Shown one piece after another: positions 40,670 through 60,575 of a stretch of 64,000 bases of DNA. Positions within the stretch are counted from its first letter, which is position 1; the number at the start of each line of letters is the position of its first letter. The notes below the pieces were generated by a model. The model did not search any database. It saw only the letters and a program-made list of their open reading frames with translations, and was not told the DNA's origin. The stretch is from Clostridia bacterium. Lineage in GTDB: Bacteria > Bacillota > Clostridia > UBA1381 > UMGS1253. The stretch is from assembly GCA_045652745.1 (NCBI GenBank), contig JAZRUW010000012.1, positions 2,089 through 66,088 of the forward strand, in the 5' to 3' direction. Position numbers and translations under genes: made by a program.

Positions 40670-40831
40670 CCTTAAGATTTGCATGCTATAACAAGGTAGT
40701 TCTGTTTCAAATCAAACATATTAACGAAAGCGGCAGTTTTTACTGCTCCTTTTTGTATGCACACAATGTTATTGCGAAAAAGACGTTTTCATAGTATAAT
40801 GATGGCAGAAACATTTGGGAGGGGAACGCTT

Positions 40832-42088
40832 ATGAAAAAGAAAGTATTGGCCATAGCTTTGGGTGTGTTGCTTCTTGTTTTCTGCATCGGCTTGACTGCT
40901 TTTGCGGCGGCGCCGGAAGATGTTGTGGTCAGCTTGCAGATAGATAATCCCATTATGGAAGTCAATGGCGTACAAACCGAGATTGACCCGGGCAGGACGA
41001 CCGCGCCGGTTGTCCATAACGGCAGAACGCTTGTGCCGATTCGGGCGATTGTGGAGGCGTTCGGCGGCACGGTCGGTTGGAATGGTGATACACAAACCGT
41101 AATACTGACAATGGAAGAAGATGTTATACATCTTACCATTGACAATACCGTGGCGCAGCTTAACCATCAGGCAATGGCGCTCGATGTTGCGCCGACGGTG
41201 ATTAACGAACGCACTATGCTTCCTGTTCGCTTTGTTGCCGAAGGTTTTAATTTGGGCGTGGCGTGGGAAGAGGAAACGCGCACGGTTTCGGTCATCCGCA
41301 ACGGATTTGACGAGGCGGAATATGCGCTCGTCAAAAGTCTGGTGCCAGCGTATAGCGGGCAGGCGCATGTGCAACTTAACGGCAACAAACCGTTTTTTAA
41401 GGACTATGAACTGATAGAAGGCTCTTTTGAGTTTTATGCAAAATTGGATGATCTGGGGCGCTGTGATGCTGCGATGGCCTCGGTTGGCGCGGATTTGATG
41501 CCGACGGGGGAGAGAGAAAGCATTAGTTCGGTCACACCGACAGGTTGGATCAATGCAAGTTACGATGTGATATCCGGCGGTTATCTTTATAACCGATGCC
41601 ATTTAATCGGCTATCAGTTAACCGGTGAAAATGCCAATGCACGAAACTTAATTACGGGCACGCGCTATTTAAATATAGACGGGATGTTGCCGTTTGAAAA
41701 TTTGATTGATGCTTATGTGGAGCGTACGGATAACAATGTGGTGTACCGTGTTACGCCGGTGTTTTCGGGCAATAATCTTGTGGCTGACGGCGTGCTTTTG
41801 GAGGCGTACTCGGTAGAAGACAACGGTGCCGGCATTGCGTTTTGCGTGTATTGCTACAATGTGCAACCGTATATAACCATTGATTATGCTACGGGTGCAA
41901 GTGCGCTTGCAGGCGGAAGTCTGCAGCCGTCCGTCCCGCAGGAAAACAAAGCTTCGTCGGTATACAGGACGCCGTCGGGCAAGCGGTATCATCTTGATGC
42001 AGACTGCGGCGGTAAAAACAGTTATAAAACGACATTGCGGGAGGCAACTGCCGCAGGCCTGACACCGTGTGCGAAATGTGCAAAGTAA
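40832..42088 (+). CDS. secreted DNA/RNA non-specific (DNA-entry-type) nuclease with N-terminal copper-amine-oxidase-like domain and C-terminal Cys motif
   Basis: Signal peptide MKKKVLAIALGVLLLVF... Stalk domain ..HNGRTLVPIRAIVEAFGGTVGWNGDTQTV.. / ..INERTMLPVRFVAEGFNLGVAWEE... Nuclease core ..GGYLYNRCHLIGYQLTGENANARNLITGTRYLN..VVYRVTPVF... C-terminal YRTPSGKRYHLDADCGG..LTPCAKCAK. Confidence 0.75.
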   Translation: MKKKVLAIALGVLLLVFCIGLTAFAAAPEDVVVSLQIDNPIMEVNGVQTEIDPGRTTAPVVHNGRTLVPIRAIVEAFGGTVGWNGDTQTVILTMEEDVIHLTIDNTVAQLNHQAMALDVAPTVINERTMLPVRFVAEGFNLGVAWEEETRTVSVIRNGFDEAEYALVKSLVPAYSGQAHVQLNGNKPFFKDYELIEGSFEFYAKLDDLGRCDAAMASVGADLMPTGERESISSVTPTGWINASYDVISGGYLYNRCHLIGYQLTGENANARNLITGTRYLNIDGMLPFENLIDAYVERTDNNVVYRVTPVFSGNNLVADGVLLEAYSVEDNGAGIAFCVYCYNVQPYITIDYATGASALAGGSLQPSVPQENKASSVYRTPSGKRYHLDADCGGKNSYKTTLREATAAGLTPCAKCAK

Positions 42089-43804: not shown

Positions 43805-43833
43805 TTGACAAGACAGTCAGAGTATGCTATATT
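43805..43833 (+). promoter_or_regulatory. sigma-A promoter of the T-box operon
   Basis: TTGACA (43805-43810), 17-nt spacer, TGcTATATT (43825-43833). Confidence 0.65.
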
Positions 43834-43839
43834 TATCTC

Positions 43840-44122
43840 ATTATGAAAACGCTGTGATGCGGAATAGTACGCGAAAAGTTTTCGCCTGGAGAGAGATGCC
43901 GGACGGTGCGAGGCATTGGGAAGGTTTTGCAGAACTCACCGCGGAGCGGCTGCCGTGAAAAATAAAGTAGAGGCAGACGGGAACTCCCGTTACAGAGTCA
44001 AGATGTGTTAGCATCTAAAGGGCATCCCGAAGGATGAAGAAGAGTGGTACCGCGGAAGCAAAAAACAGTTAATGTTATGCTTTCGTCTCTTTCAAAACTA
44101 AAAGAGACGAAAGCATTTTTTT
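43840..44122 (+). promoter_or_regulatory. T-box riboswitch leader, specifier codon CUC (Leu)
   Basis: Stem I has a K-turn-like GCTGTGATGCGG / CCGCGGAGCGGC base, an AGTA element, a GGAGAGAG bulge and a GGTGCGAG distal loop. The specifier loop gcagaaCTCa places CTC at 43935-43937. The conserved T-box sequence AAGAGTGGTACCGCG is at 44039-44055. A 16-bp terminator (44077-44116) plus a T-run follows. Confidence 0.85.
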
Positions 44123-44158: not shown

Positions 44159-45547
44159 ATGAGAACAATCCATGTAACAGACATTACGCTCAAGAAATTG
44201 GCGGCAGAGCGCGCAGTTTCGCTGTTGTTTCGTGAAAAGACCGCGATTGCGGCCTGTGCAGATTCTATCGGTGCAGATGCGATAGAGCTTGCGGCGATTT
44301 CGAGCCTCAGAGAGGATACGATTATTTATAAGACTATTTCCCAAAACGTACAAAACAGCATCTTGGCGATTCCGGTCGGCTTTTCGGCGCAGGAGGTTTG
44401 CGATGCGTGGGAATGTGTAAAGGAAGCCGCAAAGCCGAGATTGCAAATTGAGGTACCGACTTCGACGGTGCAGATGGAGTATATGTATCATGTCAAAGCC
44501 GATAAGATGGCAGAAAAAATCGGTGCGCTGACCAAACAGGCAAAGGCACTTTGCGCGGATGTGGAGTTTGTTGCGTTGGATGCAACACGTGCGGATGAAG
44601 AATTTTTGATTGCCGCATGTAAGAGCGCAGAGGAAAACGGTGCAAATCTTGTGACGGTTTGTGATGATACAGGGATGGCACTTCCGGAGGAAATCGCGGC
44701 ATTGGTCGGCAAGGTAAAGGCGGCCGTATCCGTGCCGGTGTATGTATCCGTATGCGACGGTATAGGTATGGCAAACGCGGCGGCTGTGGCGGCAATTTCT
44801 GCCGGTGCAGACGGCGTAAAGTGCGCGATGGCAGGTGCAAAAGTACTGCAGATGGGCACTTTTAGCGCGGCGATGACAGCGCGCGGCGATGCCCTCGGCG
44901 TAAACTGCGGTTTGGTGAACACAAAAATTCATGCAAGTATTGAGGACTTATTGTCTAAAATCAATCACGAGGCGTATGAAAGTGCGGACAGCGTGAGCGA
45001 AAAGAAAAAGATTTTGCTTGACGAGGATTCCACAATTTCCGATGTGGCCCATGCTGCAAATGTGCTTGGCTACGATTTGTCCGATGAGGACAACGGCAAG
45101 GTGCATAAGGCGCTTATGCAGGTTTGTGAAAAGAAAGGCTCCGTCGGTGCTAAGGAGTTTGAGGCACTCATTGCAAGCAGTGCGATGCAGGCGCCGTCTA
45201 CCTATCATTTTGAAAGTTATTCGACGAGCTGCGGCAATCTGACGAGTGCAATGTCGCAGGTAACGCTCAGATGCGGCGACGAGCTTTTGTGCGGTGTGAG
45301 CACGGGCGACGGCCCGATTGACTCGGTATTCCGCGCCATCGAGCAGAGCATCGGATATCACTATGAACTCGACGATTTCCAGATTCAGTCCGTGACGGAC
45401 GGCAAAGAAGCACTCGGCTCAGCGTTGGTAAAACTGCGTGTGGGCGGCAAACTCTATTCCGGTAACGGTAGTTCGACTGACATTGTAGCGGCGAGCATCC
45501 GTGCGTATATCAATGCGCTCAATAAGATTGTATTTGAGGAGGCGTAA
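44159..45547 (+). CDS. 2-isopropylmalate-synthase-like protein with degenerate catalytic motifs and an intact LeuA allosteric (dimerisation) domain
   Basis: The HMGL-like barrel aligns by eye (DVEFVALDATRADEEFL..NLVTVCDDTGMALPEE), but DTTLRDGEQ is DITLKKLAA, HxHNDxG is VSVCDGIG and GIGERAGN is AGAKVLQM. The C-terminal GDGPIDSVFRAIE..SVTDGKEALGSALVKL..GNGSSTDIVAASIRAYINALNKI is a canonical LeuA_dimer domain. Confidence 0.75.
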   Translation: MRTIHVTDITLKKLAAERAVSLLFREKTAIAACADSIGADAIELAAISSLREDTIIYKTISQNVQNSILAIPVGFSAQEVCDAWECVKEAAKPRLQIEVPTSTVQMEYMYHVKADKMAEKIGALTKQAKALCADVEFVALDATRADEEFLIAACKSAEENGANLVTVCDDTGMALPEEIAALVGKVKAAVSVPVYVSVCDGIGMANAAAVAAISAGADGVKCAMAGAKVLQMGTFSAAMTARGDALGVNCGLVNTKIHASIEDLLSKINHEAYESADSVSEKKKILLDEDSTISDVAHAANVLGYDLSDEDNGKVHKALMQVCEKKGSVGAKEFEALIASSAMQAPSTYHFESYSTSCGNLTSAMSQVTLRCGDELLCGVSTGDGPIDSVFRAIEQSIGYHYELDDFQIQSVTDGKEALGSALVKLRVGGKLYSGNGSSTDIVAASIRAYINALNKIVFEEA

Positions 45548-45550
45548 GCG

Positions 45551-48010
45551 ATGAAACTGACCTTTTCAACGAAAAACGTGCATCGTCCTACCTTTCTGGA
45601 TACCTGCCGTTATGCATATGATTACGGCTATGCAGGTTTTGAAATTTATGACGCTGTTGCGGAACGTAAGCAGCACCACGACAGTATTTTAAGAACAGAT
45701 CGCGTGGCGGATGCAAAACGCAAGTTGTTTAATCGCGGTTTGGCAGTATCTGCGCTGCGCTACCCGTACGAAGTGGAAAGCGAACTGGCCTGTGCACAGA
45801 CACTTGAAAAATATGTTGATATGGCGAGAAATGCGGGCATTGAACGTGTCATCGTACGTGTTTGGGAAGAACCGGACAAGGCGCTGCTTTATGAGAAGCT
45901 GATGCCGGCAATTCAGCGTGCGGAAAAAGCGGATATACAGATTTTGTTTGAAACGGCCGGCTACCTGGCGCAGACGGAGCATGTGATTGATTTAATCAAT
46001 CTATTTTCGTCGGCAGCAATCGGGGTTTCGTGGAACACGAGAGAAACCTATTTCCGTGCCGGTGAGAGTGCCGATAAGACCATTAAAACCTTAGGTGCGT
46101 ATATCAAATATGTGCGACTCGGCGATATGGCGGACGGCAAAAAAGTGCTCATCGGTGAGGGAGAATTGCCGGTGACCAATGTAATTAACGCGCTTTCTTC
46201 GCTCAATTTTGACGGCTATATTTGTGTGGCATGGAATGAAGAAATTCAGGATGCAGATATTGTTTTGACGCATTTTATAAATTATATCGCCAGCCTTTCG
46301 CGCCGCCGCAAGGAAAAAGACGGCGCGTACTATAACCGCGATAAGTCGGGTACATTTGTCTGGAAAAAGTATGATGTCATTGATGCAACATTTTCCGATG
46401 TGCTCGATACGATGGTAGAAAAGTATCCGGACCAGTATGCCTTTAAGTATACGACCTTGGATTATACCCGTACTTATGCGCAATTCCGCCGCGATGTGGA
46501 TGAATGTGCGGCGGCGCTGATTTCGCTGGGTGTAAAAGCGGGCGACCATGTTGCCGTGTGGGCAACCAATGTGCCGGCGTGGTTTATTACCTTCTGGGCA
46601 ACCACGAAAATCGGTGCGGTACTCGTTACGGTAAACACGGCTTATAAAATTCACGAAATTGAATATCTTTTAAAGCAGTCGGATACCCATACGCTGGTGA
46701 TGATTGAAGATTGTAAGGACATCAACTATAAAGAAATTATCGAAGAACTTTGTCCGGAATTAAAGGGATTGAAACCGGGCACACCGCTCTATTCGAAAAA
46801 CCTGCCGTTTTTGCGCAATGTCGTTACGGTAGGCTTTGAGATGGACGGATGTCTTACCTGGGAGAAGATGCTTTCGCGCAGCAGCATGGTGCCGCAGGAG
46901 GAAGTGCGCAGACGCGCATCGCTTGTAAAGCCGGACGATGTGTGCAACATGCAGTACACTTCGGGTACAACCGGTTTTCCGAAAGGTGTTATGCTGACGC
47001 ACAGAAACATTGTAAACAACGGTAAAACCATCGGCGACCGCATGGATTTGTCCACGGCGGACCGCATGATGATTCAGGTGCCGATGTTCCATTGTTTCGG
47101 CATGGTTTTGTCGATGACATCTATGATGACGCACGGCGGCACGCTCTGTCCGATGCCGTACTTTTCGCCGAAATCGTCGCTGGCATGTGTAAATGATGAG
47201 CATATTACCTGCTTTAACGGCGTGCCGACGATGTTTATTGCGATGTTTAACCATGCAGATTTCGCGAAGACCGATTTTTCGTATATGCGTACGGGCATTA
47301 TGGCCGGTGCAAACTGTCCGGCGGATTTGATGCGCCGCGCGGCAGAAGAAATGAATATGCGTGAGATTATTTCCGTGTACGGGCAGACCGAGGCTTCGCC
47401 GGGCTGTACGATGGGTGAGGTCAATGAAGACCTTGACCACCGTGTGGAAACGGTAGGCTCGGCTTTTCCGGGTGTGGAGTGTAAGATTATCGATCCGGAA
47501 ACCGGAGAGGAATTGCCGGACGGCGAGAGCGGCGAGTTTGTAGCGCGCGGCTTTAACATCATGAAGGGGTACTACAAGATGCCGGAGGCAACCGCGCAGA
47601 CGATTGATGCGGACGGCTGGCTCCATTCGGGCGACATTTGCTGCCGTACACCGGATGGCTATTACAAGGTAACGGGCCGACTCAAGGATATGATTATTCG
47701 CGGCGGCGAAAATCTCTATCCGCGTGAAATCGAAGAATTTTATCTTACACATCCGAAGGTGCGCGATGTGCAGGTGGTTGGTGTGCCGGATGAGCGTTAC
47801 GGCGAAGAATGCTGTGCGTGGATTATTTTGCACAAGGGCGAAGAAGCGGACGAAAACGAAATGCGCGAATTTGGTAATGCTTCCATTGCGCGCCATAAAG
47901 TACCGCGCTACTTTGTGTTTGTCAAGGAATTTCCGATGAACGCCGCAGGCAAAATTTTGAAATATAAAATGCGTGACGAATCCGTGGAAATACTCGGATT
48001 GAAAAAATGA
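45551..48010 (+). CDS. fusion protein: xylose-isomerase-like TIM-barrel domain plus AMP-forming acyl-CoA synthetase/ligase
   Basis: Single uninterrupted 819-aa ORF. Residues 1 to about 255 are AP-endonuclease-2/sugar-phosphate-isomerase-like (GYAGFEIYD, ILFETAGY, YIKYVRLGD, NFDGYICVAW). The rest is an adenylate-forming enzyme (MQYTSGTTGFPKGVMLTHRNIV, ..GWLHSGD.., ..RLKDMIIRGGENLYPREIE.., C-terminal ..AAGKILKYKMRD). Confidence 0.8.
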   Translation: MKLTFSTKNVHRPTFLDTCRYAYDYGYAGFEIYDAVAERKQHHDSILRTDRVADAKRKLFNRGLAVSALRYPYEVESELACAQTLEKYVDMARNAGIERVIVRVWEEPDKALLYEKLMPAIQRAEKADIQILFETAGYLAQTEHVIDLINLFSSAAIGVSWNTRETYFRAGESADKTIKTLGAYIKYVRLGDMADGKKVLIGEGELPVTNVINALSSLNFDGYICVAWNEEIQDADIVLTHFINYIASLSRRRKEKDGAYYNRDKSGTFVWKKYDVIDATFSDVLDTMVEKYPDQYAFKYTTLDYTRTYAQFRRDVDECAAALISLGVKAGDHVAVWATNVPAWFITFWATTKIGAVLVTVNTAYKIHEIEYLLKQSDTHTLVMIEDCKDINYKEIIEELCPELKGLKPGTPLYSKNLPFLRNVVTVGFEMDGCLTWEKMLSRSSMVPQEEVRRRASLVKPDDVCNMQYTSGTTGFPKGVMLTHRNIVNNGKTIGDRMDLSTADRMMIQVPMFHCFGMVLSMTSMMTHGGTLCPMPYFSPKSSLACVNDEHITCFNGVPTMFIAMFNHADFAKTDFSYMRTGIMAGANCPADLMRRAAEEMNMREIISVYGQTEASPGCTMGEVNEDLDHRVETVGSAFPGVECKIIDPETGEELPDGESGEFVARGFNIMKGYYKMPEATAQTIDADGWLHSGDICCRTPDGYYKVTGRLKDMIIRGGENLYPREIEEFYLTHPKVRDVQVVGVPDERYGEECCAWIILHKGEEADENEMREFGNASIARHKVPRYFVFVKEFPMNAAGKILKYKMRDESVEILGLKK

Positions 48011-48013
48011 TTC

Positions 48014-48049
48014 AAAAAGACAGATTTTTCTCAAAAATCTGTCTTTTTT
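48014..48049 (+). terminator. rho-independent terminator of the T-box operon
   Basis: aaaaagacagattttt-ctc-aaaaatctgtcttttt. Confidence 0.75.
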
Positions 48050-48124: not shown

Positions 48125-51100
48125 ATGAAAAAAATTCTGAGTATGATTTTGACGGTGTGTATGCTTATAAGCGTACTGCCGACAAGCTTTGTATGGGCGG
48201 CGTCCGAGCCGGTCGTGCTGTTTGACTATGACTTTGAGGATTGTGTTCTTGGAGACAACGTGCCGCTCAAGGCGGATTCGCTTACGGATTGGTCAAGCGG
48301 TCTATTTGGGGAACTGCCCCGCATCGAGGCGGTAAAAGATGCCGAGCACGGCACAGTAGTCAAATATTATAGAAAGGAAGGGTCAGGTGCACCGAGACTG
48401 GACAAAGTATTGTACGCAGGCGGTATGACCAATATGACCGTATCTTTTGAGGCAAAACAAGCCGGCGGATCAAAACTGATATGCAGGCTGTATTATGCGG
48501 ATGGAACATCTTATGATGAGTTTACATCGGTTAATCAAACTACATGGACGAAGTTTGAGGTTAAGTTCAATTTTACCGACGGTACATATTCTGTAAATGG
48601 CGGTCAAACTAAAACTATGGCAAGTACAGATACATCTGAACTGACTTTGCGTTTTAGTGCCAGTGTTAGCACGGAGAAATATGCTTATTTAGATGATGTC
48701 TTGGTGACAACAACGGATAATGTGACTCCGGAGGATGTATCCAACGGCGATGTCGGTGTGCGTACACCTGAGGAGATTATGGCGCCGTTTGCGCAGTATA
48801 CGAAGGCACCGGCAACTGCCGTGCCGGATGGCAAGTATAAGCTCTTTGCCTATGACGGCAGTCTGAATACAAACGACGGCGTTGCTACGGGTACGGATGC
48901 ACTCTGGACGAATGTATCCAGAGCAAAGTCGGCCGTTTTGGATGAGGACAACCTCATTCGTTTTACAAATGATAGACGAAGCATGCAAAATGCTTATGTA
49001 ACCAAGAAGCTTGCGGTTGGTACAAATCCGGGCACGGTGTGCATGGAATATTATACCGTGCTTTCGGACAGCAAGGCGTATGTGTCGCTGGCGGCCAATG
49101 AACAAACGGATACAGGTACGACGAACACGACATTGGTGGAGACAAATACAATTACGAAATCGACCGCCGGCGTAAATGCAGACGCATGGAATCTGGTGAA
49201 AGCTGAGTTTGATTTTACAAACGGGCAATATAAGATTTATGTCAATGATACGCTTGCGGAGCAGGGGGCGTTTAAAGCATCCATGCCGGAAGGCGCGTAT
49301 GAAGTCACCATCGGTGCACGCGCAAAGCTTGCAGGGGCAGACACTATGCTGGTCGATAACTTTGTAATGTATCAGGACAGCGAGCCGGAAGTGTCAGGCG
49401 AAAAATACTACGGTACCACGGGTACAACTTGGAGGAAAGTGACGGAGGGCATTAAACTTGATGCGAATAGTTATGTATACAAACTGCGTTCGCATCCGAG
49501 ACTTTTGATTACCAGCCGTCAGGCGGTTTTGGATAAAATTGCTGCAGACCCGAAAGTGGCGGCATGGTATAAAGCTGTTAAAGAGGATGCGGATAAAGAT
49601 TTGGGGAAAGACCCGCAGAAATATGAGTTTTCCAACGGCAGAAATATTAAAAAAGAAGCCAGTGTGATTTCCGGTCGAATCACCCGCCTGGCGTTGGTGT
49701 ATCTGGTAGCGCAAGAAGACAAATATTTTGAGCGTGCGCTTTTAGAAATCCGTAACGCGGGCACATTTCCGGACTGGTCCAATTCGGCGCCGATTCTGGC
49801 ATCGGGCATTATGTACAGTATTGCATGCTTTTACGACTGGTGCTATGACGCGCCGGGTATGACAGCTGCAGTTAAAACAGAGATTATTGACATTGTCAAG
49901 AAACAGGCGCTCTGGCAGTTTGCACGTTCGTATGACGGCGTAATCAACGTAGAAATTGCAAACGGTAACACAAACAGAACGACGGTTGCCAATGCCTGCG
50001 GTGCGGGTATGGCAATTGCAATGGCGGACGAAGAGCAGCTGCTTGCACAATATTTGATTGATAATGCGATTAAGTGCACCCAGCAGACGGTAAATGCGTA
50101 TAGTACGGACGGTGCATTTTCGGAGGGTACATCCTACTGGGAATATGCAAATGACAGTATGTTTAACTTCCTTGCGCAGATGGACAGCGCAACGGTGGAG
50201 GGCTATGAAAAGCCGCAGGCACTGCAGTGGTATTATGAGTCAGGAGAGTTGTACAATACACCCGATTACTGGGCATATATGTCCGGTCCGGCCGGTAATT
50301 TTGACTACGGCGATTCCAATCCGGAATTTTCGGGACATCCGTTAATCTACTGGTATTCCCAGCGTAACAACAGACCGTTTTACAGTTGGTTTTTGGAAAG
50401 AACGCTGCAGAGAATCGGTTCTTCGGTAGGCAGCAAAAAGTTTGCGATTGCTTATTACGATAACACTTTTGAAAGCTACAATGACGGCACGATGCCGCTG
50501 GATAAAACCTTTAATGCAACCGCTTTGGCGCAGGTAGCGAGCATGCGCTCGTCCTGGACTGCAGGCGATGCTCTGTATGCGGCAATCCAGGGCGGTGACA
50601 ACCAAGCGAGCCATATGGCAAAATCGCTCGGTACATTTGTGCTCGATGCAAACGGCAAGCGCTTTGTACGCCAGATTGGGCATGTGGATTATGGTTCACT
50701 GTATGATTCGCATCTGTATTACATGGAGCGTGCCGAGGGTAATAATACCATTATCGCGAACCCGAACTTGGATGGCGAGAGCTTTGACCAAAACGAGAAT
50801 GCCATCGCAAGATTTATCAAACATGCAGAGGCGGAAAACGAAGCCTACACCGTGCTGAATATGACGGAAACAAACGATGCATTTACCGATGCAAAGCGCG
50901 GTATGTATATGACCAAGGGCAGAAACTCGGTTGTGCTTCAGGATGAAATCGAAACAAATACACCGTCCGAAATCTGGTGGTTTGCGCATACGGATGCAGA
51001 GCTTACGTTAACAGAGGACAAAAAGGGCGCAATCATGCGTATCGGCAACGAAAAGGTGTATGCGAGAATTACGAGCGGCCCTGCGGATGCGGTCTTTACC

Positions 51101-52645
51101 GTAATGGAAGCCGAGTCGATGATGGATGAGGAGCTTCGTGCACCGGACGAAATTGCGGTAAATTGTCAGAAGCTTGCTATTCATATGCAAAATGTTTCCG
51201 ACCTTACATTGACAGTGGAATTTATTCCGCTTCGTACAGGAGAAGGTGTACCGACTGCATTTACCGAGGTTAAGCCGATTGAGAACTGGAGCGTATCGGA
51301 TAATACAATCTCTGCAAAGCGTCAGGCAGGCGATGCCGTTGTGATGCTTGCAAACAGTCCGATGGCGATTGCATATGAATCCAAAGTTGCCATTAACGAA
51401 AACGATACAAATGTTGCGCCGTTTGTGCAAGACGAGGTGCTCTATGTACCGGCGATTCGCACGGCGGAACTTGCTTACGGCAAGGCAACATTTAAAGACG
51501 GCAACCTCAGCGTAACGAGAGATTATGTAACCAACACAATCAGCGAAGGCTTATTGACGCGGGACGATGTGGTATATGCACCGGCAACGGCGCTTGCAAC
51601 GGCGCTCGGCATGCAGCTTTACACCTACGAAAACAGCATGTTTGCTTTTGCGGACAGAGACCCTGCCTATACGGATGCAGAAAAGGCAGCCGTATACACG
51701 GAGCTCAATACCCATGTTTACTTAAACGAGGAGCTGTTTACAGGTTTCAGCACGGAAAAAACGACCTATTTCATCCCGAATGACATTTCGATGCCGACCG
51801 TGCGCGTGTCGAGCGGTGAGACAGTGACCAAGACAAAGGATAGCGCAAGCTTTACGGTAAACGGACAGACTTATAATTTCTATCGCACGGACGTCGTGGA
51901 TGCGGTAGCCCGCTACAATGTTGCTCTCGGCAAAGTATTGACGGCGAATAAGGAAATGGGTGGCACAAACATAGTGGATTATATAACGGATGGCGATATG
52001 AGCACCTTCGGCGGTGTAAAGTACACAACCGTAAAGAATGTAACCTTTACGCTCGAACTGGAAGGCCCGCACTATATAGAATCTCTGCAACTGACCGATA
52101 GAAGACCGGAAGCTGCTTCAGTTATGGAGAAGGTTGTATACACCGGTATTCTGGAAGACGGCAGCAAGGTGAACCTCGGCGGAATTGAAAACATGGATGT
52201 TGCCGGCGAACTTTCAGGCGAACGCCGCTTAAATGTTGTACAGTGTGCGGTTGAGCAGCCGGTTACTGCCATTGAAATGTATCTGGAAGATACCAACGGT
52301 TCTGTCAATGGTGAGAACGATGACAGAATCTCTATCTATGAATTTGAGGTTATCGGCATCAAGGCAAGTACAGAGCCGATTGTTCCGGAAACCTATACGA
52401 CGTATGCAAAGACTGACGGAGGGTATGCTTTCAGCACGGAATTTGCCGGTTTGATACCGCAGAGCGGTTATCTGATTGCTGTCGCCTATAACGGTGACAA
52501 GCAGGTTGGTATGAGAATCGTGCCGTGTACAGGCAAAGAAAAGGAAGAATACACAATGGAATGTACAGCACTTGATAAGGTGCAGATTATGCTGTTGGAG
52601 TCGTTTTACACAATGCGGCTTCTTGCAAATCCGGAAATTTTATAA
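48125..52645 (+). CDS. large secreted heparinase II/III-family (polysaccharide-lyase-like) multidomain protein
   Basis: Signal peptide, then two ConA/LamG-like modules (FDYDFEDCVLGD.., ..VDNFVMYQD). The heparinase II/III-like core runs LRSHPRLLITSRQAVLDKIAADPKVAAWY.., FPDWSN.., ..GDNQASHMAKSLGTFVLDANGKRF... A copper-amine-oxidase-like stalk segment and a discoidin/F5-8-type-C-like module lie near the C-terminus. Confidence 0.7.
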   Translation: MKKILSMILTVCMLISVLPTSFVWAASEPVVLFDYDFEDCVLGDNVPLKADSLTDWSSGLFGELPRIEAVKDAEHGTVVKYYRKEGSGAPRLDKVLYAGGMTNMTVSFEAKQAGGSKLICRLYYADGTSYDEFTSVNQTTWTKFEVKFNFTDGTYSVNGGQTKTMASTDTSELTLRFSASVSTEKYAYLDDVLVTTTDNVTPEDVSNGDVGVRTPEEIMAPFAQYTKAPATAVPDGKYKLFAYDGSLNTNDGVATGTDALWTNVSRAKSAVLDEDNLIRFTNDRRSMQNAYVTKKLAVGTNPGTVCMEYYTVLSDSKAYVSLAANEQTDTGTTNTTLVETNTITKSTAGVNADAWNLVKAEFDFTNGQYKIYVNDTLAEQGAFKASMPEGAYEVTIGARAKLAGADTMLVDNFVMYQDSEPEVSGEKYYGTTGTTWRKVTEGIKLDANSYVYKLRSHPRLLITSRQAVLDKIAADPKVAAWYKAVKEDADKDLGKDPQKYEFSNGRNIKKEASVISGRITRLALVYLVAQEDKYFERALLEIRNAGTFPDWSNSAPILASGIMYSIACFYDWCYDAPGMTAAVKTEIIDIVKKQALWQFARSYDGVINVEIANGNTNRTTVANACGAGMAIAMADEEQLLAQYLIDNAIKCTQQTVNAYSTDGAFSEGTSYWEYANDSMFNFLAQMDSATVEGYEKPQALQWYYESGELYNTPDYWAYMSGPAGNFDYGDSNPEFSGHPLIYWYSQRNNRPFYSWFLERTLQRIGSSVGSKKFAIAYYDNTFESYNDGTMPLDKTFNATALAQVASMRSSWTAGDALYAAIQGGDNQASHMAKSLGTFVLDANGKRFVRQIGHVDYGSLYDSHLYYMERAEGNNTIIANPNLDGESFDQNENAIARFIKHAEAENEAYTVLNMTETNDAFTDAKRGMYMTKGRNSVVLQDEIETNTPSEIWWFAHTDAELTLTEDKKGAIMRIGNEKVYARITSGPADAVFTVMEAESMMDEELRAPDEIAVNCQKLAIHMQNVSDLTLTVEFIPLRTGEGVPTAFTEVKPIENWSVSDNTISAKRQAGDAVVMLANSPMAIAYESKVAINENDTNVAPFVQDEVLYVPAIRTAELAYGKATFKDGNLSVTRDYVTNTISEGLLTRDDVVYAPATALATALGMQLYTYENSMFAFADRDPAYTDAEKAAVYTELNTHVYLNEELFTGFSTEKTTYFIPNDISMPTVRVSSGETVTKTKDSASFTVNGQTYNFYRTDVVDAVARYNVALGKVLTANKEMGGTNIVDYITDGDMSTFGGVKYTTVKNVTFTLELEGPHYIESLQLTDRRPEAASVMEKVVYTGILEDGSKVNLGGIENMDVAGELSGERRLNVVQCAVEQPVTAIEMYLEDTNGSVNGENDDRISIYEFEVIGIKASTEPIVPETYTTYAKTDGGYAFSTEFAGLIPQSGYLIAVAYNGDKQVGMRIVPCTGKEKEEYTMECTALDKVQIMLLESFYTMRLLANPEIL

Positions 52646-56690: not shown

Positions 56691-59600
56691 ATGAGATCGA
56701 TGATGAAAAGTGTATGTCTTATTTTGTGCCTGACGCTTTTGTGCAGTGTGCTGCCGATGGGCGTATTTGTAGCGGCGGCGAAGGAAAACGTAATTTTTTC
56801 CTTTGACTTTGAAGACTGCGCCGTAGGCGAAGGAATTACGCAGGACAGAGCGAATGTGAATGGTTGGTACACACTTACGATTAAGCAGAATAATGCGCCG
56901 TTGATTGTGCAAAGTGAAAAGGGACGCGGCAATTATGCCTATATCGAAAATATTTCTGATGCTGCATCGGGTCCGAAGCTTATGAAGATGATAAACTTAG
57001 GGGCGCTGACCAATCTGCGTGTATCCTATGAGTGTAAGGGCAACAGATATGTCGGTTTTTCCATGAAGGATGATGCGGAAAAGGTTTCGATAAAAACCAA
57101 GGCCTATACGGAATGGACGAGCGTCGTTGTGGATATTGATGTTGAAAATGCGAAGTTTACGACAACCATCGGCGGCGAAGTGACGCAGAAGGATGTAGCA
57201 TTTAGTATGTTTGCCGATCCGTCACAGATTCAGTTCGAGTTTGGCGGCAGTCTGAGTGCGGGAGAGTATTTTTATATCGATAATGTAAAGATTACTACGA
57301 CAGATGATATTACTGCCGAAGCGGCGCAAAGTGCGAAAACGGCAGCGCATCCGGCAAATCAAAAATACATAGAGGCGGCGCAGAAGGCGCAGGAAGAAAA
57401 ACTCAACGTGCAGTTTGAGTCCCGTGCGCCGGCGGCAATTTCCGTACCGGAGGGTCAAAACTACATTGTTTTGGAGGACTTTGAAGGTTACGGCGAAGTT
57501 TTAAAGTATGACAACTGGTCGATCGTCGGCAATAAAACGTATGTAAATCCGGCAAAGGAGGCCGGCAATCAGTTTGTAGCCATTTCCAATACGGACAGAG
57601 AGATGCACACGCCGCGTTTTAACCGTCCGCTCAAGAATTTAAATCTCAATACCATGACGTTTGAACTTGATTTTGCGGCAAATCCGGCGCTGGATTTGAT
57701 TGTGTATGTGAAAAATGCGGATAAATCCGTGCAGATTGCCAGACCGGGAGAGACCTACGGTGACGGCAAGTGGCATCACCTTAAGGCAGAGGTCAACTTT
57801 AAGGATAAAAAGTTTGTAAGCTATATTGACGGTGCCGAGGTAAAGAGCGGTGACCTTGTGGAGCTGATGACGGCAGATGCGTGGAAAACGATGGAAATTC
57901 AGATTTCCGCACAGCTTGGCGCCGGTGCAAAGGGCAGATTGGATAATACGGTTGCATATACGCCCGACAGCGTGGCAAACGCCGTGTTTGACTATCAAAA
58001 CAACATCAACTGGGATATGGTAAAAACCGATAACCCGACCGGTTATACCGAGATTGTCCGTGAAGAACATCCGCGACTGATTATAAACGACTGGGATGTC
58101 ATCCGTGAAAAAATTAAAAACGATTACTGGTGCGGTCTGTGGTGGCAGTCGGTCAAGAATGCGGCAGACAGTTATATCCGTGACAATGCTATGGTGCCCT
58201 ACAGAGTGAATGAACGCGGTAACATTCAGGAAACCAGCCAGGATATCCGCATCAAGAGCTATGTGCTTTCGTTTGTTGCCGGTGTGACCGGCGAAAGAAA
58301 ATATGCGGAGCATATGTATAAAATCTTAAAAGACGTACATGATACGTTCCCGGACTGGAGCGAAAATCTTGCGCTTTTGAGTGCAAACTTCATCGGTGCA
58401 TATGCTTACGCTTATGACTGGGCATACCATGTGTTTACACCGGAGGAGCGTGCGGATGTACTTCGCATGACGATAAACCGCGGTGTAAGCATTGCCGTAC
58501 AGGGTTATGAAAACAAACTTGCAGAAGCGTATATGACGATGATGAATCGAGGCAATAATCAGTCGTCAACAGCCAATAGAGCCAATATCTGCCTGGCGGT
58601 TGCGATTGCAACCGAATATCCGCAGATTGCAGAGTATCTGCTCGATAATGCCTCTAAAGGTCTGCCAAACGTATTTGCAGAGTTTTTCCCGGACGGCGCA
58701 TTTATAGAAACAACGGACTATTGGGATGCCAGTGCCACTGACGTTATGCAGGCGATTGCGGTATTGGAGTCCGGCGCTAAAGAGGGTGCAAAACTGCCGG
58801 AAAGACTCGACTGGGCAAACACGATTCCGGGCTTTGTCAATACCGGTGACTTTCCGATTTATTACAGCGGTGCAACGGCATCGTTTAACTACGGCGATAC
58901 GACCTCGAGATTTATTTCTTCCACCTCGTTTTTGTATCTGTCCGCACGTTGGGGTGAGCCGAAGTATGCGTGGTATGAGATGACACGCAATCAGGTGAAC
59001 AGTCCCTTTACAACCAGACGTATTCCGTTTGCGATTGCGTGGTACGATCCGGCAAATGCAGTATGCAGTCCGGGCGAATTCCCGCTCGATAAGTTCTATC
59101 AGCATTTGGAAGACGGCGGTGTAAACGGTATTTCGATGCGTTCATCCTGGGAAGATGAAGATATGCTCTTTGTTGCAATGCAGGGCGGTGACAATGGCGC
59201 AATGCACCAAAACCCGTCGCTCGGTACATTTGTTATGGACTATGCCGGCAAGCGCTGGTTTATGCTCACGGGTAAAAACTCGCTGACGGGTACTTATACG
59301 ATTGTCAGCCGACACGACGGCGATGAATCCGAAATCTGGCATGAGAGAACGGAATCGAACAATACCCTTATCATCAATCCGGATAAGACGGCAGGACAGG
59401 ACAGCGATGCGTTTGCTCCGCTGGTACGCTATGATACTGCGGCAAATGCCGCTTACGGCATTTTGGATATTTCCGATGCAAGAGAGGATATTCAAAAATG
59501 GGAGCGCGGCGTAATGCTCTACGACAACCGCGAGCGTGTGATTATCCGTGATGAAATCACGATGCATATGCCGTCCGAAATCAACTGGTTCGGACATACC

Positions 59601-60575
59601 AATGCACAAATTGACATTGCGGCGGACGGACAGAGTGCAATGATGACCATTGACGATGCAAAAATGTACGTGCGCTTAAATGAGGCACCGGCAGGTGCGG
59701 TATTGGCTGTTCGGGATATTTCGCCGCTTCCGACTTCGCCGAATCCGCCGGCACAGCACGGTGAGTATCTGCCGGAACATTCTGGCGATAAGACGTTATA
59801 TGTAAAACTTGAGGGCGTAACAAATGCAACGATCGAGCTTGAGTTTATCCCGATTAAAGACGGCTTTGCCGTACCGAGTGATACCCCGGCGCGCAAGACG
59901 CTGGCAAACTGGTCGGTAGAGGAAAGTCAGCCGTTTACGGCGCAGGCGCTCGGCAATGCCGTAGCATTAAAGCTCGGCACACCGGTAAGCTTTGCCAAGG
60001 GTCAGAGAACCTATGTAGACAAAGACAATATGGATGTTGTACCGTTTACGGAAAACTCCAGAACGCTCGTGCCGGTACGCTATATTGCGGAATCCTTCGG
60101 TGCAACCGTAGGCTGGAATGATGCGACGCAGGCGGTGACCGTAGATTACTTAAATAAACACATCGAACTGCAAATCGGTTCGAATCAGATGCTTGTCAAC
60201 GGGCAGGCTACGACGCTGGATGTTGTAGCAAACACCTACAACAGCCGTACCTTTATTCCGCTTCGAGCACTGGTGGAAGCACTTGGCAAGGTAGTATTGT
60301 GGGATGACCGTGGTTTGATTGTGATTTCGGATATGGAAATGGGTTATAGCGCACAGACGCTGACGGCGGCTTGTGCATACTTAGATATCCGTATCTTTGC
60401 AGGCGACGATGAAATTGCATTTGACCCGGCAAAAACAACGTATTATCTCAAAGGCGCACCGCGCGCAATCCGCACATTGCAAAATAACAATTCTGCGGTA
60501 ATTACGGTGACGGACGGTCAGCCGGCGACGGTAACGATTGATGGAAAGGTATACACATTCTATTTTGAAAGCTGA
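56691..60575 (+). CDS. large secreted heparinase II/III-family multidomain protein (paralog of 48125..52645)
   Basis: Same architecture. Signal peptide, then FSFDFEDCAVGEG.. LamG-like modules. Core EEHPRLIINDWDVIREKIKNDYWCGLWW.., FPDWSEN.., ..GDNGAMHQNPSLGTFVMDYAGKRW... C-terminal copper-amine-oxidase-like domain (..RTLVPVRYIAESFGATVGWNDATQAV.., ..RTFIPLRALVEALGKVVLWDD). Confidence 0.7.
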   Translation: MRSMMKSVCLILCLTLLCSVLPMGVFVAAAKENVIFSFDFEDCAVGEGITQDRANVNGWYTLTIKQNNAPLIVQSEKGRGNYAYIENISDAASGPKLMKMINLGALTNLRVSYECKGNRYVGFSMKDDAEKVSIKTKAYTEWTSVVVDIDVENAKFTTTIGGEVTQKDVAFSMFADPSQIQFEFGGSLSAGEYFYIDNVKITTTDDITAEAAQSAKTAAHPANQKYIEAAQKAQEEKLNVQFESRAPAAISVPEGQNYIVLEDFEGYGEVLKYDNWSIVGNKTYVNPAKEAGNQFVAISNTDREMHTPRFNRPLKNLNLNTMTFELDFAANPALDLIVYVKNADKSVQIARPGETYGDGKWHHLKAEVNFKDKKFVSYIDGAEVKSGDLVELMTADAWKTMEIQISAQLGAGAKGRLDNTVAYTPDSVANAVFDYQNNINWDMVKTDNPTGYTEIVREEHPRLIINDWDVIREKIKNDYWCGLWWQSVKNAADSYIRDNAMVPYRVNERGNIQETSQDIRIKSYVLSFVAGVTGERKYAEHMYKILKDVHDTFPDWSENLALLSANFIGAYAYAYDWAYHVFTPEERADVLRMTINRGVSIAVQGYENKLAEAYMTMMNRGNNQSSTANRANICLAVAIATEYPQIAEYLLDNASKGLPNVFAEFFPDGAFIETTDYWDASATDVMQAIAVLESGAKEGAKLPERLDWANTIPGFVNTGDFPIYYSGATASFNYGDTTSRFISSTSFLYLSARWGEPKYAWYEMTRNQVNSPFTTRRIPFAIAWYDPANAVCSPGEFPLDKFYQHLEDGGVNGISMRSSWEDEDMLFVAMQGGDNGAMHQNPSLGTFVMDYAGKRWFMLTGKNSLTGTYTIVSRHDGDESEIWHERTESNNTLIINPDKTAGQDSDAFAPLVRYDTAANAAYGILDISDAREDIQKWERGVMLYDNRERVIIRDEITMHMPSEINWFGHTNAQIDIAADGQSAMMTIDDAKMYVRLNEAPAGAVLAVRDISPLPTSPNPPAQHGEYLPEHSGDKTLYVKLEGVTNATIELEFIPIKDGFAVPSDTPARKTLANWSVEESQPFTAQALGNAVALKLGTPVSFAKGQRTYVDKDNMDVVPFTENSRTLVPVRYIAESFGATVGWNDATQAVTVDYLNKHIELQIGSNQMLVNGQATTLDVVANTYNSRTFIPLRALVEALGKVVLWDDRGLIVISDMEMGYSAQTLTAACAYLDIRIFAGDDEIAFDPAKTTYYLKGAPRAIRTLQNNNSAVITVTDGQPATVTIDGKVYTFYFES

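Follow-up and report, generated by a model that had tools for sequence, protein, structure and literature searches.

It has been recognized since the 1960s that anaerobic bacteria of the rumen and gut require isovalerate, isobutyrate and 2-methylbutyrate, which they carboxylate into leucine, valine and isoleucine. The underlying route is one of reductive carboxylation, in which the acid is converted to its acyl-coenzyme A (acyl-CoA), acyl-CoA and CO2 give a 2-oxoacid, and the 2-oxoacid gives the amino acid. We found no paper assigning the activating enzyme, or its regulation, for branched-acid carboxylation in rumen and gut anaerobes. Leu-class T-boxes of the Firmicutes precede leuS and the ilv-leu operon, and in petrobactin synthesis the barrel dehydratase AsbF makes the acid that the adenylating AsbC activates. 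The methylbutyryl-CoA synthetase MbcS of Staphylococcus aureus scavenges external branched short-chain acids by means of an AMP-forming ligase, preferring 2-methylbutyrate and isobutyrate over isovalerate, a poor substrate, and feeds fatty-acid primers (PMC10026030). Here we analyze a stretch of 64,000 nucleotides from a Clostridia bacterium (contig JAZRUW010000012.1; henceforth, the window), in which a two-gene operon encodes a fusion of a xylose-isomerase-like TIM barrel to an acyl-CoA ligase, preceded by a paralogue of 2-isopropylmalate synthase that we term LeuA*.

We consider it reasonably probable that the fusion protein is an isovalerate-CoA ligase that starts the reductive-carboxylation salvage of leucine and is switched on at leucine shortage. 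In the proposed scheme, uncharged tRNA-Leu(GAG) would bind the specifier and the bulge of a T-box leader and thereby block its terminator, so that LeuA* and the fusion are co-transcribed. The ligase would then act on a branched short-chain acid, most probably isovalerate, to yield isovaleryl-CoA via the acyl-adenylate; a four-subunit 2-oxoacid:ferredoxin oxidoreductase (OFOR), presumably working in the anabolic direction, would reductively carboxylate isovaleryl-CoA to 4-methyl-2-oxopentanoate; and a class IV aminotransferase would make leucine from the latter.

The control region supports such a scheme in considerable detail (all coordinates refer to the forward strand of the window, unless otherwise stated). 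A sigma-70-type promoter (TTGACA-17-TATATT with a TG extended -10, 43805..43833; a consensus match only, with 11 of 12 matches) is followed by a T-box leader RNA at 43845..44093, scoring 123.6 bits with RF00230 against a gathering threshold of 93. The leader presents a Stem I, a leucine specifier CUC followed by the purine A (43935-43937; read from the Rfam alignment and from alignments with nine relatives), a UGGU bulge in the antiterminator (44045-44048) that is predicted to pair with the ACCA end of the tRNA, and an intrinsic terminator with a 16-bp stem and T run (44077..44116), whose 5' half overlaps the antiterminator. These are the features expected of the Leu class, and the genome encodes a tRNA-Leu(GAG) ending in A73-CCA that matches both specifier and bulge; Stem I folded alone did not give a significant z-score. 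The LeuA* gene (44159..45547, 462 aa) comes first, its stop lying 4 nucleotides before the start of the fusion, and the operon is closed by a hairpin terminator at 48014..48048, which was reported on the minus strand by the scan but has a palindromic stem with its T run on the plus strand.

This arrangement is widely conserved. The order T-box, LeuA*, fusion is found in all seven close relatives from the GTDB family of the window, and LeuA* comes before the fusion wherever upstream sequence exists (80 species loci). Using a covariance model of Stem I built here (R1), which replaced two noisy regular-expression screens for specifiers, a T-box was detected directly upstream of LeuA* in 60 of the 71 species loci with enough flank, and all of their specifiers are leucine codons (56 CUC and 4 CUG). 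Forty further loci were drawn from a class sample of 400 evenly chosen Clostridia genomes; 16 have LeuA* and 24 do not, and T-boxes are present in 16 of the 40 (15 CUC and 1 CUU). Three LeuA*-less fusions of the same GTDB family also have CUC T-boxes. Since Leu-specifier T-boxes are conserved in this way, expression of the fusion appears to be tied to tRNA-Leu charging across the family. Other structured RNAs were encountered in the vicinity of these leaders: in a relative (L034:9031-9119), an S-adenosylmethionine (SAM) riboswitch (RF00162, 50.6 bits) precedes the Leu T-box by about 460 nucleotides on the same strand, and an OLE (ornate large extremophilic) RNA (RF01071, 480 bits) lies about 1.7 kb from the T-box-controlled fusion gene in a metagenome-assembled genome of gut Clostridia (L040:4014-4648; relative G012, contig C49).

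The pathway assignment draws on gene linkage. In L085 and five further loci, the genes for all three steps of the route (ligase, OFOR and aminotransferase) are linked in one operon, which encodes LeuA*, the fusion, a class IV aminotransferase (Aminotran_4, BCAT), a P-loop ATPase, a 2x[4Fe-4S] ferredoxin, OFOR alpha and OFOR beta. OFOR genes without an aminotransferase follow the fusion in L093, L098 and L116, and in L093 an ATPase, a ferredoxin and OFOR alpha, beta and gamma are placed behind the Leu T-box. The BCAT and OFOR alpha of the window's genome are, respectively, 58% and 76% identical to those encoded in the L085 operon.

Canonical leucine biosynthesis, with LeuA feeding LeuBCD, was considered and rejected. 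LeuA* matches the HMGL-like (89.6 bits) and LeuA_dimer (100.2 bits) domains of Pfam, the regulatory domain being thus retained, and falls below every NCBIfam cut-off. In an alignment with the 2-isopropylmalate synthase 3eeg, KKLAA stands in the place of RDGEQ and VC-DG in that of HCHND, so that the Asp and Arg of the RDGxQ motif and the HxH metal ligands by which this enzyme is recognized, and with them the metal and substrate residues, are gone; judging from its sequence, LeuA* is a 2-isopropylmalate-synthase paralogue devoid of catalytic residues. The window's genome has no other LeuA homologue and no IlvD. It contains no aconitase-family gene except one adjoining isocitrate dehydrogenase, and hence no LeuC, and no LeuB candidate, its two Iso_dh matches being isocitrate dehydrogenase itself and a DmlA-like gene beside a LysR regulator.

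The Leu operon is not alone in this genome, where four of seven T-boxes (Leu, Ile, Val and Tyr) control acyl-CoA ligases. The Ile (AUC) T-box, on contig C15, controls a 791-aa helix-turn-helix (HTH)-cupin-ligase that is a paralogue of the ligase in the Val operon. The latter, outside the window and under a Val (GUA) T-box (C3:1-4523, minus strand), starts with an HTH-cupin-AMP-ligase fusion of 768 aa and goes on to a P-loop ATPase and a 2x[4Fe-4S] ferredoxin; the OFOR alpha gene that comes last is truncated by the end of the contig. The Tyr (UAC) T-box (C4:8700-15389, minus strand) governs a sodium:solute symporter, an Amidohydro_2 protein, an AMP-binding ligase, IorA and IorB, and this operon looks like a salvage route from an arylacetate (4-hydroxyphenylacetate?) to tyrosine. 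Among the 80 species loci, 27 have an Ile T-box adjacent to the Leu operon; in 24 of these, tblastn placed an HTH-cupin-ligase gene beside that T-box, and four loci have a Val T-box as well. The most economical reading of this series is that each ligase would activate the acid cognate to its T-box, which for leucine is isovalerate.

The fusion gene itself (45551..48010, plus strand) has an ATG start and no internal stops, and encodes 819 aa, in which an N-terminal TIM barrel (residues 1-250; 45551..46300) is joined by a short flexible linker to a complete AMP-forming acyl-CoA ligase (residues 288-819; 46412..48010). Three Pfam domains exceed their cut-offs: PF01261 AP_endonuc_2 (residues 20-230; 54.8 bits against a gathering cut-off of 31.1), PF00501 AMP-binding (residues 288-675; 320.2 bits) and PF13193 AMP-binding_C (residues 726-801; 62.1 bits). 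The barrel is further delineated by an AlphaFold2 model, by Foldseek and by typing of its ligands. The intervening segment (46301..46411) comprises the linker proper (residues 251-257, with a predicted local distance difference test score, pLDDT, below 50) and a conserved N-terminal extension of the ligase (YYNRxxxGxFVWKKYxVIDxTF). All the core motifs of ANL enzymes can be located in the ligase, to wit A3 (YTSGTTGFPKG, residues 469-479; 46955-46987), A5 (YGQTE, 610-614), A7 (HSGD, 692-695), the A8 hinge (RLKDMIIRGGENLYP, 710-724, including RGGENLYP at 717-724; 47699-47722) and the A10 lysine (Lys801 within AAGKILK, GK801; 47951-47953), and these five are invariant in 71 orthologues. A full-length AlphaFold2 model built with those orthologues has a mean pLDDT of 86.4, with values below 50 solely at residues 251-257, 470-477 and 511-515; the two-domain fold of the ligase is modeled confidently and can be superposed on 4CL, FadD13 and MatB. 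The closest NCBIfam model is NF009233 (PRK12583, fatty acid CoA ligase family), which matches residues 277-817 with 675.9 bits and is missed by 156 bits, its curated cut-off being 832.

An initial annotation of the locus had described one continuous reading frame joining a barrel to a complete adenylate-forming ligase, as is indeed the case, and every motif it quoted is in place, including the barrel motifs LFETAG (with E134), WNTRET (161-166) and YVRLGD (187-192). It also regarded the fusion as unusual, which in the sense of rare does not hold, for relatives occur in at least 595 genomes when one genome per species is scanned with full-length fusions as query. The best 80 of these relatives are full-length fusions, belonging to uncultured Oscillospiraceae, Acutalibacteraceae, Christensenellaceae, Faecousia and other Clostridia, mostly from ruminant guts. 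In the class sample, the barrel profile matches at 1e-10 in 228 of 400 genomes, the best 150 of these matches all lie within open reading frames of 820-900 aa or are cut by contig ends, and the full-length fusion is present in at least 37% of the genomes, including genomes made up of a single contig. The same three domains and full length (a frame of 819-840 aa) are shared by more than 120 protein clusters at 85-100% identity and by 70 complete orthologues from other species in independent assemblies, and 17 of 19 genomes in the window's GTDB family have the fusion. A search of a representative library with the barrel returned mostly fragments and frameshifted pieces of fusions, and distant fusions exist as well. 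The fused gene is therefore real and common in gut and rumen Clostridia. The annotation was aware of no characterized member, and had allowed that the architecture might prove both common and functionally annotated; only the first part applies, since full-text searches of the literature yielded nothing on the fusion, its LeuA* partner or its regulation, and the sources that list such proteins call them merely 'AMP-binding protein', none assigning a function.

Modeled in isolation, the barrel reaches a pLDDT of 96.4 and a predicted template modeling score (pTM) of 0.93, and Foldseek relates this model to UlaE (3cqj, template modeling (TM) score 0.84) and also to YcjR, D-psicose 3-epimerases and AsbF (3dx5), with TM scores of 0.72-0.84, a probability of 1.0 and sequence identities of 11-16%. 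Querying the PDB by sequence with only the barrel of the window produced no significant match, unlike the profile and fold searches. Fusion relatives with a canonical site carry E in ILxET, D and H in WDxHH, H and D in HVHxKD and E in SLEW. Aligned with them, the window's protein reads WNTRET for WD..HH, YVRLGD for HVHxKD and CVAW for SLEW, with a 4-residue deletion in this last region, after the final strand. Of the Glu-Asp-His-Glu metal ligands, E134 is kept and the other three are lost (D to N162, H to R189 and E to A227), a column assignment that agrees with MJ1311 (3wqo); the suspicion voiced in the initial annotation, that the barrel is non-canonical at its metal-ligand positions, is thus borne out by alignment. 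The residues lining the pocket are E134, N162, R164, E165, R189, G191, D192 and A227.

These replacements are not random. Across the 39 species of the window's clade (group A), E134, R164, G191 and D192 are found in all 39, N162 in 38 and R189 in 37, plus one K, drift being limited to positions 165 and 227 (A, D, S, L or N at the latter). Mean pairwise identity over the same species is 59.6% for the barrel against 86.6% for the ligase, and the ratio of nonsynonymous to synonymous substitution rates (dN/dS) is 0.089 against 0.031 (Nei-Gojobori, 18 unsaturated pairs). With its replacements fixed across 39 species and a dN/dS of about 0.09, the pocket has been remodeled and is not freely decaying; the barrel is kept under selection with a rebuilt, Arg-lined pocket. 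This pocket is presumably metal-free, so that the barrel of this lineage would no longer be a metal enzyme, its former site having become a fixed Glu/Asn/Arg/Arg/Asp pocket. The domain is probably a binding or regulatory module, most likely one that binds an anionic ligand or docks the co-translated LeuA*.

The state of the barrel can be followed against the presence of LeuA* in 124 fusions. In the 30 that lack LeuA*, the six site positions are invariably EDHHDE, while the 94 fusions with LeuA* keep four ligands in 23 cases, three in 14, two in 11 and one in 46. The three-ligand class mostly has Lys or Arg for the first Glu (KDHHDE in 10 and RDHHDE in 1), and at least three distinct degenerate patterns (ENxRDx, ENAHDV and KDHHDE) can be told apart, which points to repeated change of the site. 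We had first supposed that LeuA* never accompanies a canonical barrel, which is true within the GTDB family and was refuted in the wider sample by the 23 of 94 just mentioned; this idea is replaced by a one-sided rule, according to which fusions without LeuA* always keep the metal site. We read this as an ancestral metal-site task, catalytic or sensory, that may have become dispensable once LeuA* was present.

The 4-nucleotide spacing and strict co-occurrence of the two genes suggest a complex between LeuA* and the fusion, in which the intact leucine-type regulatory domain of LeuA* would impose feedback control on the ligase. As a tentative extension of this idea, the barrel and the dead LeuA may form a two-pseudoenzyme control module acting on the acyl-CoA ligase. 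After recruitment of a LeuA with an intact leucine-binding domain, the metal site would have been lost or rebuilt in several ways (E-N-R-R-D here, ENAHDV, or Lys/Arg for the first Glu elsewhere), and LeuA-type feedback inhibition would have been moved onto the first step of isovalerate salvage. A further gene partner was noted downstream. An Amidohydro_2 (PF04909-like) gene follows the fusion in 28 of 67 loci, and does so in 24 of the 46 loci in which the site is lost against 4 of the 21 in which it is kept (p 0.016). This gene starts 16-270 nucleotides after the fusion stop, and its product is 27-35% identical to the Amidohydro_2 protein of the Tyr operon in the window's genome. Amidohydro_2 loci are L049, L051, L054-L056, L058-L063, L069, L073, L075, L079, L080, L087, L089-L091, L094, L095, L102, L103, L107, L108, L110, L111 and L119.

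An alternative view of the same data is that the barrel is still an enzyme, with the Glu134/Asn162/Arg164/Arg189/Asp192 pocket catalyzing a metal-independent step on a carboxylate or thioester, such as the enolization or tautomerization of the 2-oxoacid or the hydrolytic proofreading of an incorrect acyl-CoA or adenylate, and the fusion being bifunctional. The near invariance of the pocket in group A and its low dN/dS are compatible with catalysis, as are the substitution of Arg for both His and of Lys or Arg for the first Glu in another clade, both of which bring a positive charge into the former metal site or its immediate surroundings. The same can be said of the perfect catalytic-type site of all LeuA*-less fusions, and of the downstream Amidohydro_2 gene, itself a TIM barrel, being commoner where the site is lost. 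Set against this, UlaE, YcjR, D-psicose 3-epimerase and AsbF all use an E-D-H-E metal site, the fourth ligand position and position 165 are precisely those that drift, and the three-step route requires no candidate barrel reaction. We hence deem a catalytic barrel unlikely.

The remaining alternatives concern the ligase. A general branched or short-chain acyl-CoA synthetase might supply isovaleryl-, isobutyryl- or 2-methylbutyryl-CoA as primers for branched-chain fatty acids, and not for amino-acid synthesis. Isovaleryl-CoA does prime iso-odd fatty acids. MbcS sets a precedent for the scavenging of branched acids by an AMP-forming ligase to make lipid primers (PMC10026030). Nonetheless, the Leu-specific T-box (60 of 71 and 16 of 40 loci) ties expression to tRNA-Leu charging and not to the state of the membrane, the ligase gene lies beside those for BCAT and OFOR in operons such as L085, and the same genome has separate Ile and Val T-box ligases, which together make a role in lipid priming distinctly unlikely. 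Less probable still is that the ligase acts on another leucine-related acid (2-hydroxyisocaproate, 4-methyl-2-oxopentanoate or isocaproate) or adenylates its substrate for an acceptor other than CoA. The versatility of ANL enzymes and the distance to the nearest curated model leave some room for this notion, and an ancestral metal barrel could have prepared such a substrate; however, the product to be expected from linkage to OFOR and BCAT is an acyl-CoA with one carbon fewer than the 2-oxoacid, CoA-ligase-type enzymes have the A8 and A10 motifs and the C-terminal domain seen here, and the operon has no carrier-protein or transferase gene. Finally, the concern of the initial annotation that two genes had been merged near 46300, by an assembly or sequencing artefact, can be set aside with near certainty, given that the full frame recurs across clusters, species loci and the class sample, single-contig genomes included, and that dN/dS points to selection over the entire frame.

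Isovalerate activation for leucine salvage thus remains the preferred reading, but several observations weigh against it or against parts of it. Sequence does not allow the substrate specificity of the ligase to be deduced. The protein is under the cut-off of every curated NCBIfam model, and the closest solved structures, at 25-32% identity, are those of generic ANL enzymes. In the full-length model, the placement of the barrel with respect to the ligase is uncertain (pTM 0.63). The association between absence of LeuA* and an intact site (Fisher's exact test, p 1e-14) is not corrected for phylogeny, and the perfect metal site of the LeuA*-less fusions suggests an ancestral barrel activity that falls outside the proposed scheme. 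In the window's own genome the OFOR sits in the Val operon, not in the Leu operon, and the aminotransferase is unlinked; this genome (1.54 Mb) is 95% complete, which makes the absences reported above strong, but not absolute. Lastly, no T-box was detected in 11 of the 71 species loci. Five of these 11 (L084, L085, L086, L092 and L099) are near-identical group-B loci, whose regulation must differ. In four of the latter (L084, L085, L092 and L099) the Leu operon has its own aminotransferase and OFOR genes and the barrel reads EDHHDE.

Elsewhere in the window, the operon is followed at 48125-52645 (plus strand) by a gene for a 1506-aa protein with no NCBIfam match and only a weak match to a heparinase II/III C-terminal domain (21.9 bits, below cut-off). 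Five paralogues of this protein are present in the 1.5-Mb genome, and one of these lies within the window, at 56691-60575. Upstream of the operon, positions 40757-42088 (plus strand) encode a 443-aa protein in which a non-specific DNA/RNA endonuclease domain accompanies a copper-amine-oxidase N-terminal-like domain.

The interest of the fusion operon lies in that it makes a long-standing nutritional pathway directly testable. The Leu operon constitutes a concrete, testable gene set for the leucine branch of this pathway, present in a large share of Clostridia, and belongs to a modular regulon of T-box ligases (Leu, Ile, Val and Tyr) in a single small genome. The fixed E-N-R-R-D pocket, the contrast in dN/dS between barrel and ligase, the retention of the metal site by LeuA*-less fusions and the operons that join ligase, aminotransferase and OFOR are new here. 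More generally, the fusions provide a natural series for the passage from a catalytic TIM barrel to a non-catalytic module, with intact, partly lost and Arg-lined sites whose state correlates with the gain of a pseudoenzyme partner. On the practical side, these findings bear on the supplementation of ruminants with branched-chain volatile fatty acids and on the prediction of amino-acid auxotrophies in uncultured gut bacteria.

Compared with described systems, the ligase is closest in sequence to the ACSF2/YngI-type synthetases (NF009233), with which it shares a full-length match, all the ANL core motifs and the two-domain fold; it differs from them in scoring below their cut-off and in adding a 250-aa TIM barrel and an extension, a Leu T-box and a dead-LeuA partner. 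The barrel has the fold of UlaE, YcjR, D-psicose 3-epimerase and AsbF, whose E-D-H-E site is kept by fusion relatives, but departs from them in N162, R189, A227, the 4-residue deletion at the LEW strand and its fusion to a ligase. The pair formed by AsbF and AsbC offers a precedent for the functional coupling of the same two folds, although in that case the proteins are separate, the substrate is aromatic and there is no link to leucine, whereas the barrel of the window is without a catalytic metal site. MbcS is the nearest characterized functional analogue of the fusion ligase, and does without barrel, LeuA partner and T-box. In its presumed action, the fusion ligase resembles both the ACSF2/YngI-type and the MbcS-type synthetases of short or medium-chain acyl-CoA. 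With the Leu-class T-boxes of the Firmicutes, the leader in the window shares a complete Stem I, the CUC specifier, the UGGU bulge and the competition between terminator and antiterminator, but in place of a tRNA synthetase, a transporter or canonical biosynthesis genes its cargo is a pseudo-LeuA and a ligase fusion.

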